From a virus, in the IMG/VR virus record IMGVR_UViG_3300022213_000004: DNA of 64,000 nt. One strand, given 5' to 3'. The position numbers were made by a program, and so were the translations under genes. Positions within the stretch are counted from its first letter, which is position 1. Each line of letters begins with the position of its first letter. The notes under the pieces were generated by a model, which searched no databases, was not told the origin of the DNA, and worked only from the letters and a program-made list of their open reading frames with translations. Below, in pieces: positions 8,418 through 15,225 of the stretch.

Positions 8418-8951
8418 CTAAACATTTTTTTTCTTTTTGTACCTAACATACCATCCCGTGTATCTTCCGGTCTTATAATTTCCATTATTTTCGCCAGATA
8501 CATCTGAGTAATCTCTTTGTTTGCGAGTTCCATTCTCATAAGATTTTTTTAAACTTTCACTTCTTTTTATATTGCTTTCTATTGAATTGGTTTTTCCTTT
8601 TCTGTTTGAAGTTTTTCCCTTTTTTGCAAGTGACATTTTTTCTTTAGTTTCTTTTGAGAATTCTTTAGCAGTTTCTCCACCGCTTGTTAAATTGTATCCT
8701 TCAATCATAGTGTTATAAAAACTTATCCAATATGATTCTCTTTCATCTAAAATATCAGGTGAACACTCTTCTAGAATTTCGATTCTAAAATCTTCTCTTG
8801 CGTATTTTCTCATCGCTTTGTATAATGGTCTCGTAAGATTAACATTTTTAGATGATATGAAGTGTTGAGATATTCTTTTTGATAATCTTTGTTTGGTTTG
8901 TCCTATGTATTTTTTTCCACTAGGACTTTCTATGGAATAAATTATCGCCAT
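8418..8951 (-). CDS. GIY-YIG homing endonuclease, antisense orientation
   Basis: IIYSIESPSGKKYIGQT...R...H...E...GYNLTSGG; minus-strand TAAATA overlaps the gp43 ATG. Confidence 0.9.
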   Translation of the reverse strand: MAIIYSIESPSGKKYIGQTKQRLSKRISQHFISSKNVNLTRPLYKAMRKYAREDFRIEILEECSPDILDERESYWISFYNTMIEGYNLTSGGETAKEFSKETKEKMSLAKKGKTSNRKGKTNSIESNIKRSESLKKSYENGTRKQRDYSDVSGENNGNYKTGRYTGWYVRYKKKKNV

Positions 8952-8983: not shown

Positions 8984-10261
8984 ATGTCTTTAAGGTTTTA
9001 TACTAATGTTCAGTTGATTGGAAATCAATTTTTGGTTCGTGGAGTAGATAATGGAAAAAGATTTGAAACTAGAGATGAGTTCTTCCCAACTCTCTTTGTA
9101 AAAACTAAAAAAGATTCTAAGTATGGAACATTAAGTGGAGAAGCAGTAGAACCAATTAATCCTGGAACAGTAAAAGATTGTCGAGAGTTCTACAAAAAGT
9201 ATGATGAAATTGATGGATTTGAGATCTATGGAAATGATCGATATATCTATCAATATATTTCAGAAAAATATCCAGAGGATGAAATCAAGTTTGACATTAG
9301 TAAAATTAAACTTGTAACTTTGGATATTGAGGTTGCTTCTGAAGCAGGATTCCCTGATGTAGAATCTTGTTCTGAAGAAATTCTTGCAATCACCATCCAA
9401 GACTATACAACTAAGAAAATTGTTACTTGGGGAGTAAAACCTTTTAATCATAATCGTAAGGACTTGACTTATCACCATTGTCCTTCTGAATATGAACTTC
9501 TTAATCATTTCATCAACTATTGGATGTTCAATGTTCCAGATGTAATTACTGGATGGAACATTCAGATGTATGATGTTCCTTATATTTGCAAACGTCTGAA
9601 TCGTGTGCTTGGTGAAAAATTGATGAAACGTTTTTCCAACTGGGGATTAGTTACGGAGGGAGAAGTATTCATTAATGGTCGTAAGCACACTGTGTTTGAT
9701 GTTGGTGGATTGACTCAACTTGATTATCTTGACCTTTATAAGAAGTTTACTTATAAGGCACAAGAATCTTATCGTCTTGATTACATTGCTGAAGTGGAAC
9801 TTGGGCAGAAAAAACTTGACCACTCCGAGTTTGACACCTTCAAGGATTTTTATACTCAAGGATGGCAGAAGTTTATTGAGTATAACATTGTTGACGTGGA
9901 ACTTGTTGACCGATTGGAAGACAAGATGAAACTCATTGAGTTAGCACTCACCATGGCTTATGATGCTAAGGTAAATTATGCTGACGTTTTCTATCAAGTG
10001 AGGATGTGGGATAATATTATCTACAATTATCTTAAGAAACGTAACATCGTTATCCCCCCGAGGAATAAATCCCAGAAGAACGAAAAATATGCGGGGGCAT
10101 ATGTCAAGGAACCAATTCCGGGAAAGTATGACTACGTGGTAAGTTTTGACTTGAATTCACTTTATCCGCACTTGATTATGCAATATTCAATTTCGCCCGA
10201 AACTCTTGTGAGTATGGATGATATTAATAATCGTATTGCGGAATTAGAAAAAATGTTGTAG
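8984..10261 (+). CDS. gp43: Family B DNA polymerase gp43, N-terminal fragment (exonuclease plus motif A)
   Basis: LDIEV, ITGWN, YNIVDV, GAYVKEP and SFDLNSLYP motifs; stops shortly after ISPETL. Confidence 0.93.
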   Translation: MSLRFYTNVQLIGNQFLVRGVDNGKRFETRDEFFPTLFVKTKKDSKYGTLSGEAVEPINPGTVKDCREFYKKYDEIDGFEIYGNDRYIYQYISEKYPEDEIKFDISKIKLVTLDIEVASEAGFPDVESCSEEILAITIQDYTTKKIVTWGVKPFNHNRKDLTYHHCPSEYELLNHFINYWMFNVPDVITGWNIQMYDVPYICKRLNRVLGEKLMKRFSNWGLVTEGEVFINGRKHTVFDVGGLTQLDYLDLYKKFTYKAQESYRLDYIAEVELGQKKLDHSEFDTFKDFYTQGWQKFIEYNIVDVELVDRLEDKMKLIELALTMAYDAKVNYADVFYQVRMWDNIIYNYLKKRNIVIPPRNKSQKNEKYAGAYVKEPIPGKYDYVVSFDLNSLYPHLIMQYSISPETLVSMDDINNRIAELEKML

Positions 10262-10263
10262 AA

Positions 10264-10296
10264 TATCCACACATTATAAATAATAAAGTGTGGATA
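10264..10296 (+). promoter_or_regulatory. Hairpin with TATAAATA late promoter in its loop, before the HNH gene
   Basis: tatccacac pairs with gtgtggata around attataaataataaa. Confidence 0.7.
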
Positions 10297-10303
10297 AAAC
10301 TAA

Positions 10304-10864
10304 ATGCAACCAAAATTCAATATAACAAAAGAACAGTTAAAACAACTTTATATTGTTGATAACAAAAGTAGAAAAGAGTGTGCTGAATTTTTTGGTTGTT
10401 CTGACCCACTTATTAAGCAAAAAATACAAAAATATGGGTTGCAAAAACCTAAACATTTGGAGAACAAAAATAAAGAAAGAAAAGAAACTCTTTTTTGTGA
10501 AAATTGTGGTTCTCCATTCACTGTAAGTAGATTTAGAGCAACAAGTGAAAAATGGAAACTTCGGTTTTGTTCTCATTCTTGTTCTTCTAAATTTAGATAT
10601 TTGGGTGAAGAGCATAAAAGAGCGGTTTTGAATTCTATTTCTGCTCGCAGAAGATGTAGAATGAGAGATGCTTTTGATGAAACTTCAAACCAACAAAAAA
10701 TAAATGAAATATATTGCGAAGCAAAAAGATTAACTGAAGAAACTGGTATTCCTCACGAAGTAGACCATATTATTCCAATTTCAAAAGGAGGAAAACATCA
10801 CGAAGATAATTTACAAATTATCACGATGAGTGAAAATCGTAAAAAACATAGTAAAATTATCTAA
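10304..10864 (+). CDS. HNH endonuclease lying between the gp43 fragments
   Basis: HEVDHIIPISKGGKHHEDNLQIITMSENRKK; CENC...FCSHSC zinc finger. Confidence 0.92.
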   Translation: MQPKFNITKEQLKQLYIVDNKSRKECAEFFGCSDPLIKQKIQKYGLQKPKHLENKNKERKETLFCENCGSPFTVSRFRATSEKWKLRFCSHSCSSKFRYLGEEHKRAVLNSISARRRCRMRDAFDETSNQQKINEIYCEAKRLTEETGIPHEVDHIIPISKGGKHHEDNLQIITMSENRKKHSKII

Positions 10865-10865
10865 A

Positions 10866-11030
10866 ATGACTTACGAAGAAGAATACCAACCAAGAAATAG
10901 AGAAAAATCAAAACAAGCAAAATATGGAATGATATGGTGTGCTTATTGTGATAGAGATATGGTAGGAGATATTGGTAAATGTTCTTACTGTGGAAGATTT
11001 AATAACAGAAAGAAAATTCGCTATGAGTAA
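10866..11030 (+). CDS. Small zinc-ribbon protein
   Basis: WCAYC...KCSYC; overlaps the start of the gp43 C-terminal fragment. Confidence 0.6.
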   Translation: MTYEEEYQPRNREKSKQAKYGMIWCAYCDRDMVGDIGKCSYCGRFNNRKKIRYE

Positions 11031-12381
11031 TAATATGTGGAAAGATGTTCGTAAAATGTCTTCTAAAGAAATTAAAGAAGAGTTGGAGGCACTTAAGAAA
11101 GTAAGAGAACTTTCTAATAAAGCAAATGTAGATAAACTCCTAAAACAAGAGTTAGATTTAGAACCTTTACAAAAGGTAAATCTTACTATGACTGCTAATG
11201 GAGCACTTTATCGCAGAGTAAAAGGTATGCTTCCCGAACTAATGGAAAAAATGTATCAAGACCGAGTAATCTTCAAGAAGAAAATGATTGAAGCGAAAAA
11301 AGAATATGAGAAAACCAAGAACAAAGAACTTGTAAAAGAAATTGCCCGTTGTAATAATATTCAGATGGCAAAGAAGATTTCTCTGAATTCTGCTTATGGT
11401 GCTATTGGGAACCAGTATTTCCGTTATTATAAACTTGAGAATGCTGAAGCAATTACTCTTTCAGGTCAAGTCGCAATTCGTTGGATTGAAGGTAAGTTAA
11501 ATCAATATCTCAATAAACTTCTTAAAACTCAGGACGTTGATTATGTTATTGCTTCAGATACTGATTCCGTTTATCTTAATATGGGTCCTGTGGTTGAAAC
11601 TGTATTCAAAGGAAGAGAGAAAACTACTCAAAGCATTGTTTCGTTCCTTGATAAGGTCGCTTCAATGGAACTTGAAAAATATATTGAAAGTTCTTACCAA
11701 GAACTGGCTGACTATGTGAATGCGTATGACCAGAAGATGCAGATGAAGCGTGAGAACATTGCTGATCGTGGAATATGGACTGCTAAGAAGCGTTATATTC
11801 TCAATGTATGGGATAGTGAAGGTGTTCGCTATGAAGAACCTAAACTGAAGATGATGGGTATTGAAGCAGTTAAGTCTTCAACCCCTGCCCCTTGTCGAAA
11901 GATGATTAAAGATGCTCTTAAGTTGATGATGAGTGGAACTGAAGATGAAGTGATTGAATTTATTGATAAGTGTCGTGAAGAATTTAAAAAACTTCCACCT
12001 GAACAAATATCATTTCCACGTTCAGCATCTGATGTTCAAAAATATAAATCTTCTGCAGACATTTATATCAAAGGCACTCCCATTCATGTTCGTGGGGCAT
12101 TATTGTTTAATCACTATATTAATATGAATAAACTTACAAATAAGTATTCTCTTATTCAGAATGGAGAAAAAATCAAGTTTATCTATTTAAAAAAACCAAA
12201 TATTATTCATGAGAATGTAATTTCTTTCATTCAAGAGTTTCCAAAAGAACTCAACCTTGACAAATACATAGATTATGAATTACAATTTGAGAAAGCATTT
12301 CTAGAACCACTCAAGATTATTCTTGATTCGATTGGGTGGAGTGTAGAAAGGACTAATAGTTTAGAATTATTTTTTGTATAA
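11023..12381 (+). CDS. gp43: DNA polymerase gp43, C-terminal fragment (motifs B and C, thumb)
   Basis: QMAKKISLNSAYG, ASDTDS and KKRY motifs; C-terminal clamp-binding peptide SLELFF. Confidence 0.93.
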   Translation: MSNNMWKDVRKMSSKEIKEELEALKKVRELSNKANVDKLLKQELDLEPLQKVNLTMTANGALYRRVKGMLPELMEKMYQDRVIFKKKMIEAKKEYEKTKNKELVKEIARCNNIQMAKKISLNSAYGAIGNQYFRYYKLENAEAITLSGQVAIRWIEGKLNQYLNKLLKTQDVDYVIASDTDSVYLNMGPVVETVFKGREKTTQSIVSFLDKVASMELEKYIESSYQELADYVNAYDQKMQMKRENIADRGIWTAKKRYILNVWDSEGVRYEEPKLKMMGIEAVKSSTPAPCRKMIKDALKLMMSGTEDEVIEFIDKCREEFKKLPPEQISFPRSASDVQKYKSSADIYIKGTPIHVRGALLFNHYINMNKLTNKYSLIQNGEKIKFIYLKKPNIIHENVISFIQEFPKELNLDKYIDYELQFEKAFLEPLKIILDSIGWSVERTNSLELFFV

Positions 12382-13405: not shown

Positions 13406-13948
13406 ATGATAAAGATTCTAAAAACAGGCATTAATGTATTTAAAGTTGTAAATCAACTTAAAAAATATCCACAGGATTGGGATCATCAGAAACATCTGAA
13501 GAATTCTCAGTCCTTAGTTGATAGAGGATTTGCTGACTTGCCAGTGAGTGCTCTTCAACTTATAATGGGTGGGGTTAAAAGTAAAAAAGACTTTGTTGGA
13601 GATTCTGAAATCAACATCAAAACTCCAGCATACGAACATCACAGTGAAATCAGAAAGATTATACGCAAGCACTTTGGGAATAGAGAACTACATCGTTGTG
13701 GATTTCTTTCTCTTCCTGTTGATGAAATCGTTGGTGCTCACATTGATGAAGGTACTTATTACTTAACAAGAGACAGATATCATCTTTCCATTGTTGGAAG
13801 ATATCAATATTTCTGTGGAACTGATAGCGTGATTATAGAACCTGGAACTCTTTTGTGGTTTAATAATAAGATACCTCATGGAGCCGTAAATATCGGTGAT
13901 GAAACAAGAATAACCTTTGTATTTGATATGCCACATGGACCAAGTTGA
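13406..13948 (+). CDS. 2OG-Fe(II) oxygenase, Asp/Asn beta-hydroxylase-like
   Basis: HID...RYH...WFNNKIPH...RITFVFD. Confidence 0.8.
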   Translation: MIKILKTGINVFKVVNQLKKYPQDWDHQKHLKNSQSLVDRGFADLPVSALQLIMGGVKSKKDFVGDSEINIKTPAYEHHSEIRKIIRKHFGNRELHRCGFLSLPVDEIVGAHIDEGTYYLTRDRYHLSIVGRYQYFCGTDSVIIEPGTLLWFNNKIPHGAVNIGDETRITFVFDMPHGPS

Positions 13949-14573
13949 ATTTCTTATTCTCCGTAATCTTTTACATAATGAGCAATATATTAGAAAAGTA
14001 ATACCTTTCATCAAATCTGAATATTTTGAAGATCAAAATCAAAAGATTGTATTTGAAGAAATACTTTCTTTTGTTCAAGAATATAATCAACCAGCAACAA
14101 AAGAAGTTCTCTGCATTGAGGTTGAGAAAAGAGCAGATATTAATGAGCAATCTTTCAAAGAAATCATTCAAATAATTTCTTGCCTAGAAGATGTTCCAGC
14201 AGAATTTAATTGGTTAGTTGATACTACTGAAAAATGGTGTCGTGATCGTGCCATTTACTTGGCACTTATGGAATCTATTCATATTGCTGATGGAAAGGAC
14301 GAAAAAAAGAATCGTGATAGCATTCCTTCTATTCTCTCTGATGCTCTTGCTGTAAGTTTTGATAATCATATCGGACACGATTACTTACAGGATTATGAAC
14401 AAAGATATGAGTCTTATCATAAAAAGGAGGATAAAATTGAATTTGATCTTGAGTACTTTAACAAAATCACGAAAGGTGGTCTTCCTAACAAGACTCTCAA
14501 TATTGCTCTCGCTGGTTGTGTTCATCCAGAAACCAAAGTTAAAATTAGGTTTAGGAAACGTAGTGCCATTTAG
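13935..14573 (+). CDS. gp41: Replicative helicase gp41 N-extein fused to an 18-aa N-intein
   Basis: EKWCRDRAIY...IGHDY...GGLPNKTLNIALAG, then CVHPETKVKIRFRKRSAI-stop. Confidence 0.9.
   Translation: MDQVEFLILRNLLHNEQYIRKVIPFIKSEYFEDQNQKIVFEEILSFVQEYNQPATKEVLCIEVEKRADINEQSFKEIIQIISCLEDVPAEFNWLVDTTEKWCRDRAIYLALMESIHIADGKDEKKNRDSIPSILSDALAVSFDNHIGHDYLQDYEQRYESYHKKEDKIEFDLEYFNKITKGGLPNKTLNIALAGCVHPETKVKIRFRKRSAI
14517..14570 (+). mobile_element. Split intein N-fragment (IntN, 18 aa)
   Basis: Cys1 and block-A-like CVHPETKV inserted within Walker A (AG|TGVGKS). Confidence 0.88.
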
Positions 14574-15225
14574 ATTTTTTTGATTTACATCTTTGAACCA
14601 TTGCTCCAACTGTGATATTATTTTTTAATGCCGCATCAGTAATAGAATCATAAATGTTTATTCCATCACTAACTTTTCTTCTTCTTGATGATGGTTTATT
14701 TGTTTTTATTCCTTTATTTGGACTCTCTATTGGTGACCCAAAAATGTATCCTTTTTCTAAATAAAAATCAATATCTTTCGGACTTACTCTTATAAAAGTA
14801 GTGTCTCCTGGTCTGTGCATAACTTTTTTACCTTTGTGTGATTTTCCACCAAGAGATGCCCATTCTTTGTGAAGTTCTTTATTATTTTTATATTGATGAA
14901 ATCCTAATCCAAGTTCTGCTTGCTTTTTTCCTCCAATTTTTCCTTTTTTAGATGCTTGAGTTTTTCTTATCTCTTTTGGAATATAAAATTTTTTTCTTAA
15001 AAATTGAGCAGACCATAAATCATTTACATTGTGATTTATTTTCCATAGCAAATAATGAACTATGAAATGTTCTCTTTCAGTTAAGTATGAAAAATTTTCT
15101 TCATTATCACCACCCCCAGAATGTTTTGGTATAATATGGTGTTTATGCAGACCACTTTTTTCCTTATACTCTAGTTTTCTTTTACATCCTGCTTCTATTA
15201 TGTTATGATGTATTTGATTAAACAT
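14551..15225 (-). CDS. HNH endonuclease between the intein halves, antisense
   Basis: HKHHIIPKHSGGGDNEENFSYLTEREHFIVH; minus-strand TATAAATA near 15247-15254. Confidence 0.9.
   Translation of the reverse strand: MFNQIHHNIIEAGCKRKLEYKEKSGLHKHHIIPKHSGGGDNEENFSYLTEREHFIVHYLLWKINHNVNDLWSAQFLRKKFYIPKEIRKTQASKKGKIGGKKQAELGLGFHQYKNNKELHKEWASLGGKSHKGKKVMHRPGDTTFIRVSPKDIDFYLEKGYIFGSPIESPNKGIKTNKPSSRRRKVSDGINIYDSITDAALKNNITVGAMVQRCKSKKSKWHYVS

Follow-up and report, generated by a model that had tools for sequence, protein, structure and literature searches.

In a 64,000-nucleotide stretch of viral DNA (IMG/VR record IMGVR_UViG_3300022213_000004; the whole stretch is called the window below), gp43, the gene of the T4-type family B DNA polymerase, lies in two pieces. 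The first, gp43A (8984–10261, on the plus strand like all features of this locus given here; 425 amino acids, aa), encodes the exonuclease and N-terminal domains and the first part of the palm with motif A (DLNSLYPH). The second, gp43B (11035–12381; 448 aa), encodes the remaining palm, the fingers and the thumb, with motifs B (KISLNSAYG) and C (DTDS). Profile searches matched gp43A to DNA_pol_B_exo1 (expectation value, E, 1.6e-20) and DNA_pol_B (E 1.2e-12) of Pfam and to phrog_262 (E 6e-170), and gp43B to Pfam DNA_pol_B (E 1.6e-15) and phrog_262 (E 2.6e-178). By these motifs and by collinearity with gp43, the two open reading frames (ORFs) are a T4-type family B polymerase. There is no second gp43 in the window and no terminator-like site between gp43A and gp43B. 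Since the gene is contiguous in relatives, is two ORFs here and has an endonuclease ORF in between, the locus is a gene fractured by a free-standing homing endonuclease. The observation from which the original prediction set out, a split polymerase gene with HNH and zinc-ribbon genes between its fragments, is correct in every detail, and the sequences of both ORFs confirm that motif A and motifs B and C reside on separate chains.

In the alignment, residues 1–409 of gp43A are collinear with unsplit gp43. The protein ends in ISPETLV plus SMDDINNRIAELEKML (...LYPHLIMQYSISPETLV-SMDDINNRIAELEKML, likewise ...DLNSLYPHLIMQYSISPETLV-SMDDINNRIAELEKML), and a TAG stop codon follows. We refer to the 16 residues 3' of ISPETLV, SMDDINNRIAELEKML (10211–10258), as the A tail; its residues 1–14 are the first helix of the hairpin predicted below. 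The 42-nucleotide (nt) spacer between gp43A and the next gene holds an inverted repeat (TATCCACAC/GTGTGGATA) with TATAAATA in the loop. This RNA hairpin, UAUCCACAC...GUGUGGAUA (10264–10296), stands upstream of the HNH start codon and folds with −14.1 kcal/mol (z −4.5; none of 200 shuffles was equally good), and the box in its loop, TATAAATA (10275–10282), is by motif match a T4-type late promoter. The free-standing HNH homing endonuclease gene follows (10304–10864; 186 aa), with an N-terminal helix-turn-helix (HTH), a zinc-finger-like middle and a C-terminal HNH motif; it matches Pfam HNH (E 4.9e-9), HTH_28 (E 0.003) and the HNH endonuclease family phrog_1271 (E 4e-13).

gp43B can start at ATG 11035 (MWKDV...) or at ATG 11023 (MSNNMWKDV..., 452 aa), which overlaps the preceding stop codon. 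The former is more likely, judging from the sequences, because the MWKDV start is common to relatives whose upstream sequence differs. The first 30 residues of gp43B, MWKDVRKMSSKEIKEELEALKKVRELSNKA (11035–11124), form the B tail, of which residues 1–8 are specific to split alleles and residues 15–30 are the predicted second hairpin helix. Native polymerase sequence then resumes with a segment of 35 codons (11125–11229; NVDKLL...ANGALYRRVKGM) whose residues separate hairpin-bearing alleles from the unsplit type described next.

Unsplit relatives and the site of the break

The sequenced phages nearest to the window, S-SRM01, P-SSM2, P-SSM5, P-TIM68 and SynMITS9220M01, have a single contiguous gp43 of ~830 aa. 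When five cultured unsplit relatives are aligned with the window, polymerase homology is lost after ISPETL and comes back at (N/S/T)VDK(I/L)L. The unsplit linker between these motifs has 7–8 residues, of the type DERHPTA, and the window has instead the 16 and 30 residues of the two tails.

On RB69 gp43, the break falls after ISPETI (425–430) and before SPNG (457–460); the site maps to residues 431–455, which we take to belong to the palm domain, N-terminal to the fingers. The loop at the break is hypervariable, with 30–93 aa between the flanking motifs in 138 diverse T4-like gp43 sequences. The known natural gp43 splits of T4-like phages are at the finger tip (PMC3061061). Because the boundaries of phrog_2062 and phrog_1918 place that break ~50–90 residues further downstream, the split site of the window, directly after motif A at about RB69 residue 431, is by alignment a different one from that of the finger-tip bicistronic gp43.

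Two conserved tails and their predicted pairing

Both tails recur widely in metagenomes. A search with gp43B residues 1–140 gave 2882 hits, and in 119 of the best 120 clusters, which were inspected, the protein (mostly of 448 or 452 aa) opens with the same B tail, beginning MW(K/R)D; across these clusters, M1, W2, D4, M8, E12, I13, E16, L17, L20 and L26 are invariant. With the gp43A end as query, 83 of the best 118 of 2959 hits end 17–20 residues past SPETL, and an R-I-x-E-L-E core is invariant in the 76 clusters that end exactly 17 residues after it. As taken from the best-scoring clusters, this conservation is somewhat inflated by selection. A hydrophobic stripe with i/i+3/i+4 spacing runs along either tail, formed by (L/I/V)6, I10, L13 and M16/L17 in the A tail (counted from the residue after SPETL, Val or Ile) and by I13, L17, L20, V23 and L26 in the B tail. 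The ratio of nonsynonymous to synonymous substitution rates (dN/dS), estimated pairwise after Nei–Gojobori over 12 split loci, is lowest in the upstream core (0.07), followed by the linked segment (0.13), the A tail (0.17) and the B tail (0.25). These ratios indicate that the tails are under purifying selection, weaker than that on the core. That both tails are amphipathic, as originally proposed, and conserved is thus borne out by the stripes, the invariant positions and the dN/dS of 0.17–0.25.

The original prediction had also taken the tails to be foreign to unsplit polymerases, and here the alignments give a divided answer. All 66 unsplit alleles of the DERHPTA type that were sampled lack them, yet at least 10 other, distinct unsplit alleles, rare and in part very divergent, carry both helices contiguously, joined by a short turn of 4–7 residues; this is one of the observations that the original prediction had named as refuting it. 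One such allele, L031, encodes a contiguous gp43 of 860 aa with the sequence ...ISPETLV-EKDELNSRIAELES-SGEN-DDELKSLKKVKELSTKV-SVDKLL.... A search targeted at the fused junction yielded 5 clusters only; further ones came from the A-tail search and from a second scan of IMG/VR. P0121, P0122, P0123, P0124 and P0336 are of the type ELES-(S/N)G(E/K)N-DEL, and P0125/L093 is of the type ELEK-TADGE-NEEL. The hairpins of L095, P0356, P0367 and P0370 are much more divergent (example: TAADLTQEINAIEN-DVSRDQ-DRLEHLIQARAISTKI). All fused alleles keep the split-type signature in the next 35 residues. When P0121 is placed on the window, its residues 1–420 correspond to 8990–10249 and its residues 421–859 to 11059–12375, with neither gap nor overlap; the split allele is therefore a fused allele in which the turn is swapped for KML-stop, the nuclease gene or genes and MWKDVRKM. 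The codons of this octapeptide (gp43B codons 1–8, 11035–11058) are near-invariant as protein and as DNA across split alleles and are missing from fused ones; they may cap the tip of the hairpin, serve in translation initiation or be bound by the nuclease.

We modelled two fused alleles with AlphaFold2 (AF2), using alignments of 138 and 91 diverse homologs, which, P0121 and P0125 themselves excepted, stemmed from a single homolog search. The model of P0121 (predicted local distance difference test, pLDDT, 96.1; predicted template modelling score, pTM, 0.92) has helices at residues 409–422 and 426–441, and that of P0125 (pLDDT 94.4, pTM 0.89) at residues 411–424 and 430–444. In both, the insertion is a helix-turn-helix with local pLDDT of 91–98, in which helices of 14 and 15–16 residues run antiparallel across a turn of 3–5 residues. 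Overall, the fused-allele model agrees with RB69 gp43 at a template modelling score (TM) of 0.9. The two tails are thus predicted to be the arms of an antiparallel α-hairpin. With 14 and 16 residues, the modelled helices form a short α-hairpin and do not extend over several heptads, so the coiled-coil zipper first proposed is not upheld; the helices probably pair as a short hairpin rather than as a long coiled coil.

Two other readings of the tails were discarded. MAFFT had placed the A tail on the native SVDKILNQE, as if it were a target duplication, but identity is 4/16 and in fused alleles the tail is a separate helix. Charge complementarity of the kind seen in the split ribonucleotide reductase NrdA of Aeh1 was rejected as weak, with mean net charges of −1.3 and +0.35.

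Altogether, we favour, with a probability of roughly 0.7, a polymerase encoded by a gene in pieces, whose two chains are reassembled by a helix hairpin and which is split by a mobile cassette with nuclease turnover. A free-standing homing endonuclease cassette occupies the hypervariable surface loop that, in the gp43 palm, separates motif A from the fingers, so that the polymerase is translated as two chains. gp43A and gp43B would rejoin without a covalent link, through an antiparallel α-hairpin in which the 14-residue helix at the gp43A end packs against the 16-residue helix near the gp43B start; this hairpin may tie the broken ends beside the shared palm sheet. Both the purifying selection on the tails and the predicted hairpin agree with a need for the tails in assembly, though they do not prove it. 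Several points weigh against this. Tail pairing is read from models of fused single chains only, and the hairpin prediction leans on just two alignment sequences that cover the insertion. The charges of the tails, as given above, complement each other weakly, and MWKDVRKM, residues 1–8 of the B tail, is invariant but has no place in the fused alleles. The low synonymous divergence (dS) of the tails could partly reflect constraint at the nucleotide level, for example from a promoter or a translation start. Furthermore, the a and b fragments of Aeh1 NrdA associate without their tails (PMC3045599), and Aeromonas gp43 split at the finger tip functions with no zipper described.

A reading that we consider improbable takes the tails for remnants of the insertion that are tolerated and take no part in assembly, for which the large native interface of palm, exonuclease and thumb would suffice. 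It would agree with the position of the break in a hypervariable surface loop and with other natural and engineered splits of family B polymerases, which reassemble without dedicated zippers (PMC3061061), as well as with the tail-less Aeh1 NrdA heterodimer (PMC3045599). Leftovers would hardly be expected to have a dN/dS of 0.17–0.25, a hydrophobic stripe invariant across 76 (A tail) and 119 (B tail) clusters, and helices retained in every cassette type and in the fused alleles.

Far less probable still is that the insert of 0.8 kb is excised as RNA or as protein, through a degenerate intron or a split intein, to give a single-chain polymerase. Precedents are close at hand, since the gp41 gene next to it in the window seems to be broken up by a split intein along with an HNH gene, and phage genes fractured together with split inteins are known (PMC2677866). 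At the gp43 break, however, Rfam gave no match to a group I or group II intron even at E<=10 and Pfam no Hint or intein domain, in line with the earlier reading that no intein and no group I core is present. A group I or II intron with an endonuclease ORF was rejected on this ground and because the tails are translated and selected as protein, as their dN/dS indicates. Against a split intein speak, besides the missing Hint domain, the size and nature of the tails (16 and 30 aa, 46 in total, and helical) and the variable junction residues: the first tail residue is S, E, G or T, and there is no C-terminal HN followed by Cys, Ser or Thr. In the AF2 models of fused alleles, moreover, the tails remain in the mature fold.

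A mosaic cassette with changing nucleases

Taken by segments, the polymerase of the window comes closest to unsplit alleles such as L013, and comparison with L013 locates what distinguishes a split gene. Backbone identity between the two is 93% (92, 96, 94 and 87% in segments A1, A2, B2 and B3), and it is 78% over the first 110 residues after the B tail. In this latter segment, the window is 80–96% identical to 11 of 12 other split alleles (78% to L045), a closeness that holds even for L006, whose A1 segment is 56% identical. The trees agree with this picture. The backbone tree (716 columns) has its 11 split alleles dispersed between 66 unsplit ones, well-supported branches force at least 7 changes, and split L009 and L016 are sisters of unsplit L027 and L071, respectively; a tree with split and fused hairpin alleles is again scattered, with at least 8 forced changes. 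In the tree of the post-tail segment, by contrast, all split and fused alleles form one clade (Shimodaira–Hasegawa-like approximate likelihood ratio test, SH-aLRT, 100), a result repeated with an outgroup.

Residues specific to split alleles occur only within the ~20 codons ahead of the break, with two weak positions, and within 34 codons past the B tail, where split alleles have the diagnostic stretch NVDKLLNQELDLEPLKKVNLTMTANGALYRR-VKGM and unsplit ones TVDKILNQEINFELYK--DYAVCANGAMFRKDVRGF. In the window, DNA similarity to unsplit relatives resumes only at ~11230. dS is 0.5–1.3 in the cassette versus 1.8 in the upstream core (the downstream core is saturated and gave no estimate), which fits a more recent common ancestry of the cassette.

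These comparisons argue that a single cassette, made up of A tail, nuclease gene, B tail and the next ~35 codons, travels as a whole. The mobile unit, which includes the late-promoter hairpin, has entered many unrelated cyanomyovirus polymerase backbones, and its spread appears to be horizontal, most simply by endonuclease-driven homing with co-conversion. The ~35 altered codons are plausibly an immunised target site. Since the cassette forms one clade while the backbones are scattered, the element that now invades DERHPTA-type backbones does carry both helices with it, and this contrast also speaks indirectly for homing. To this extent the proposal that the invader supplies its own dimerisation element stands; the part of it that makes the invader the source of the hairpin is less secure, as the hairpin may predate the split.

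What lies in the break was surveyed through the distance from ISPETLV to NVDKLL in 90 loci, which fall into six classes. Unsplit alleles have 21–24 nt (including L090, first listed at 69). Gaps of 714–716 nt hold a 175-aa ORF (L006–L010, L016, L018 and L029), gaps of 751–755 nt a 188-aa HNH ORF (L030, L045, L051 and L076), and the gap of 914 nt both an HNH and a zinc-ribbon gene (window, L011 and L012). A gap of 312 nt holds a frameshifted HNH remnant in alleles that are still split (L028 and L038), and an in-frame gap of 105 nt marks the fused L031. The zinc-ribbon ORF (10866–11030 in the window; 54 aa, CxxC...CxxC) is present only in the cassettes of the window, L011 and L012, and is 65% identical to a hypothetical protein of S-SRM01, QPX48054.1, encoded at an unrelated locus; it is a small hitch-hiker, a passenger of one cassette sub-type.

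The 175-aa ORF is GIY-YIG-like, with an Atlas score of 0.95 to GIY-YIG/SegE clusters and a match to Pfam LEM-3 GIY-YIG that is below threshold (E 0.0096). Its C-terminus (L006: 3844–3996) has in common with the N-terminus of the HNH protein (10304–10450) an HTH of ~50 aa (43% identity, E 3e-12), an apparent swap of the nuclease domain on one DNA-binding module at the gp43 site. Most 175-aa ORFs and the 188-aa HNH-only genes end in KIME(N/I) or KIMGN and a stop codon, overlapping the GGAG/GGGA Shine–Dalgarno box of gp43B; the HNH gene of the window ends in KII. All cassette versions, including the GIY-type L009 and the HNH-only L030, have the TATAAATA box and RNA hairpin directly 3' of the gp43A stop, an arrangement that T-even homing endonuclease genes are known to have (review: PMC2988022). 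The nuclease module itself changes on its shared DNA-binding domain, sometimes joined by the zinc-ribbon ORF and sometimes decayed. The split and the tails persist through all nuclease states found, GIY-YIG-like, HNH, HNH with zinc ribbon, and decayed: the split outlives its nuclease.

Decay was seen in two forms. In L028 (3329–3501) and L038, a frameshifted remnant of the HNH gene of ~160 nt stands between intact gp43A and gp43B, and in P0299 the gp43A tail continues in frame into the 20 C-terminal residues of the HNH protein.

No split relative was found in 50,697 sequenced phage genomes, either by tblastn (queries: the tail and the 175-aa ORF) or by blastn (query: the whole cassette), searches in which the low-complexity filter of BLAST may mask the tail. 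The literature likewise gave no description of this cyanophage gp43 split.

Directly upstream of gp43A, on the minus strand, a 177-aa ORF (8418–8951) with a GIY-YIG-like N-terminus (IIYSIESPSGKKYIGQT) and a NUMOD3 match (E 3e-4) is the third homing-endonuclease-like gene of this module. Downstream, the N part of the gp41 helicase (region 13917–15225; DnaB N-terminal domain, E 5e-5) ends in ...LNIALAGCVHPETKVKIRFRKRSAI, and an antisense HNH gene (14551–15225), whose DNA-binding domain is of the I-TevI type, overlaps it.

Origin of the hairpin and known systems

The hairpin may predate the split instead of having been made by the invader. We lean towards an order of events in which an in-frame insertion gave rise to the hairpin before the nuclease gene landed in the turn between its helices, because the divergent unsplit hairpins differ from the split tails more than the split tails do among themselves, and because the loop readily takes insertions and cutting a hairpin in its turn is mechanistically easy. 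The trees of the cassette DNA, of the protein with an outgroup and of the backbone with fused alleles favour neither order: those of the cassette are star-like, and fused and split alleles interleave.

The opposite order has a lesser but serious chance of being right. An endonuclease would have entered a DERHPTA-type loop and brought or made both tails, as proposed for mobE of Aeh1, and the unsplit hairpins would be re-fusions. The fused junction is indeed rare (the 5 clusters of the targeted search stand against thousands of hits and at least 119 confirmed split clusters), and the fused alleles are exactly collinear with A(...ELE) plus B(S9...), as an in-frame deletion would leave them. Decay of the nuclease in place is seen in L028, L038 and P0299, and the backbone tree places the split L006 and L029 next to the fused L031, their sister. 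Re-fusion accounts less well for the divergent unsplit hairpins L095, P0356, P0367 and P0370, whose helices diverge far more from the split tails than these do among themselves, and for fused turns such as SGEN, NGKN, TADGE and DVSRDQ, which do not obviously derive from split sequence. Moreover, that two mutually fitting helices were made at insertion is less plausible than that a nuclease gene landed in an existing hairpin.

The closest precedent is the nrdA-a/mobE/nrdA-b locus of Aeh1 (Friedrich 2007; Crona et al. 2011, PMC3045599). There, as here, a free-standing HNH endonuclease breaks up an essential enzyme related to replication, intron and intein are missing, and the nuclease gene lies behind a regulatory RNA hairpin. 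Tails sit at both ends of either break; those of Aeh1 are absent from contiguous homologs, those of the window from contiguous homologs of the DERHPTA type. The Aeh1 tails, which arose with the mobE insertion, are essential for the split enzyme, and similar tails elsewhere were predicted by the authors (PMC3045599). The two systems differ in the host gene, a polymerase here and ribonucleotide reductase in Aeh1, and in the tails: those of Aeh1 promote the dimerisation of heterodimers, and the helical gp43 tails would, by prediction, pair with one another. Furthermore, Aeh1 is a single case with experimental proof, whereas the gp43 split is found across hundreds of lineages in metagenomes, where fused and nuclease-less alleles occur naturally.

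Two-part polymerases, 43A plus 43B, also occur in the T4-like phages 44RR, 25, 31, 65 and 133 (Petrov 2006, 2010; PMC3061061, PMC2988022). In phage 25, a GIY-YIG (seg-like) gene lies between 43A and 43B, and the subunits of bicistronic gp43 co-purify and are active (PMC3061061, PMC2988022). Unlike these genes, which are split at the finger tip, that of the window is split in the palm loop after motif A, ~50–90 residues upstream. The finger-tip split of the 44RR/25 kind does occur in some cyanophage contigs (L091), though not in the window. L091 (699–3577), like L092, P0123, P0367 and P0370, has a fused palm hairpin plus a second split at the finger tip. The N part of such cyanophage gp43 has 516–520 aa with a new C-terminal tail, e.g. 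...EEKKKLEQIESEMRRRGIV. In the L091 type, it is followed by a TATAAATA box and a 234-aa GIY-YIG homing endonuclease (phrog_314, E 7e-38), and the C part resumes just before motif B, at the same site as in Aeromonas phages 25 and 44RR.

Dassa et al. (2009, PMC2677866) described fractured genes of marine and aquatic phages, seen in metagenomes in replication genes of cyanophage-like kind, that have the same order of N part, hairpin, free-standing nuclease gene and C part; they include an intein-less SbcD-like case with extra residues at both ends of the break. Most of these genes rely on split inteins and none is gp43, whereas here there is no intein and the extra residues would form a helical pair. 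The T4 topoisomerase genes gp39/mobA/gp60, a different enzyme, are likewise split by a mob-type HNH endonuclease with tail-like extensions (discussed in PMC3045599). Known before, then, are the concept of tails from Aeh1, split gp43 with a nuclease gene from Aeromonas phages, and fractured cyanophage-like genes (PMC3045599, PMC2988022, PMC3061061, PMC2677866). New are the site of the split, the helical-hairpin nature predicted for the tails, their abundance, and the coexistence of fused, nuclease-less and nuclease-swapped alleles.

The finding has practical sides. At such loci, gene callers and pangenome software will list two polymerases as 'partial'. g43 is used as a marker gene for cyanophages. 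The helix pair could inspire designs of split polymerases.

How enzymes fractured by selfish nucleases are reassembled has been called an open structure-function question for T4-like phages (PMC2988022). The gp43 locus comes with natural controls, in the form of fused-hairpin, hairpin-less and nuclease-less split alleles, and with a site at which one DNA-binding domain bears either of two unrelated nuclease domains. To our knowledge, Aeh1 NrdA is the only such case dissected, and gp43 is a second, richer system: an essential replicative polymerase, broken at a new site, in hundreds of environmental lineages. Tentatively, and going beyond what we would wager on, the palm α-hairpin might be a landing pad that lets a homing endonuclease split an essential polymerase without loss of function, and a 'split-and-clip' cassette of nuclease, hairpin halves and immunised target might now be spreading through aquatic cyanomyoviruses, turning single-chain polymerases into two-chain ones. 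If so, the coexisting split, fused and nuclease-less alleles would be a ready-made experimental series. In any event, the locus makes both the question of assembly and that of the origin of the tails directly testable.

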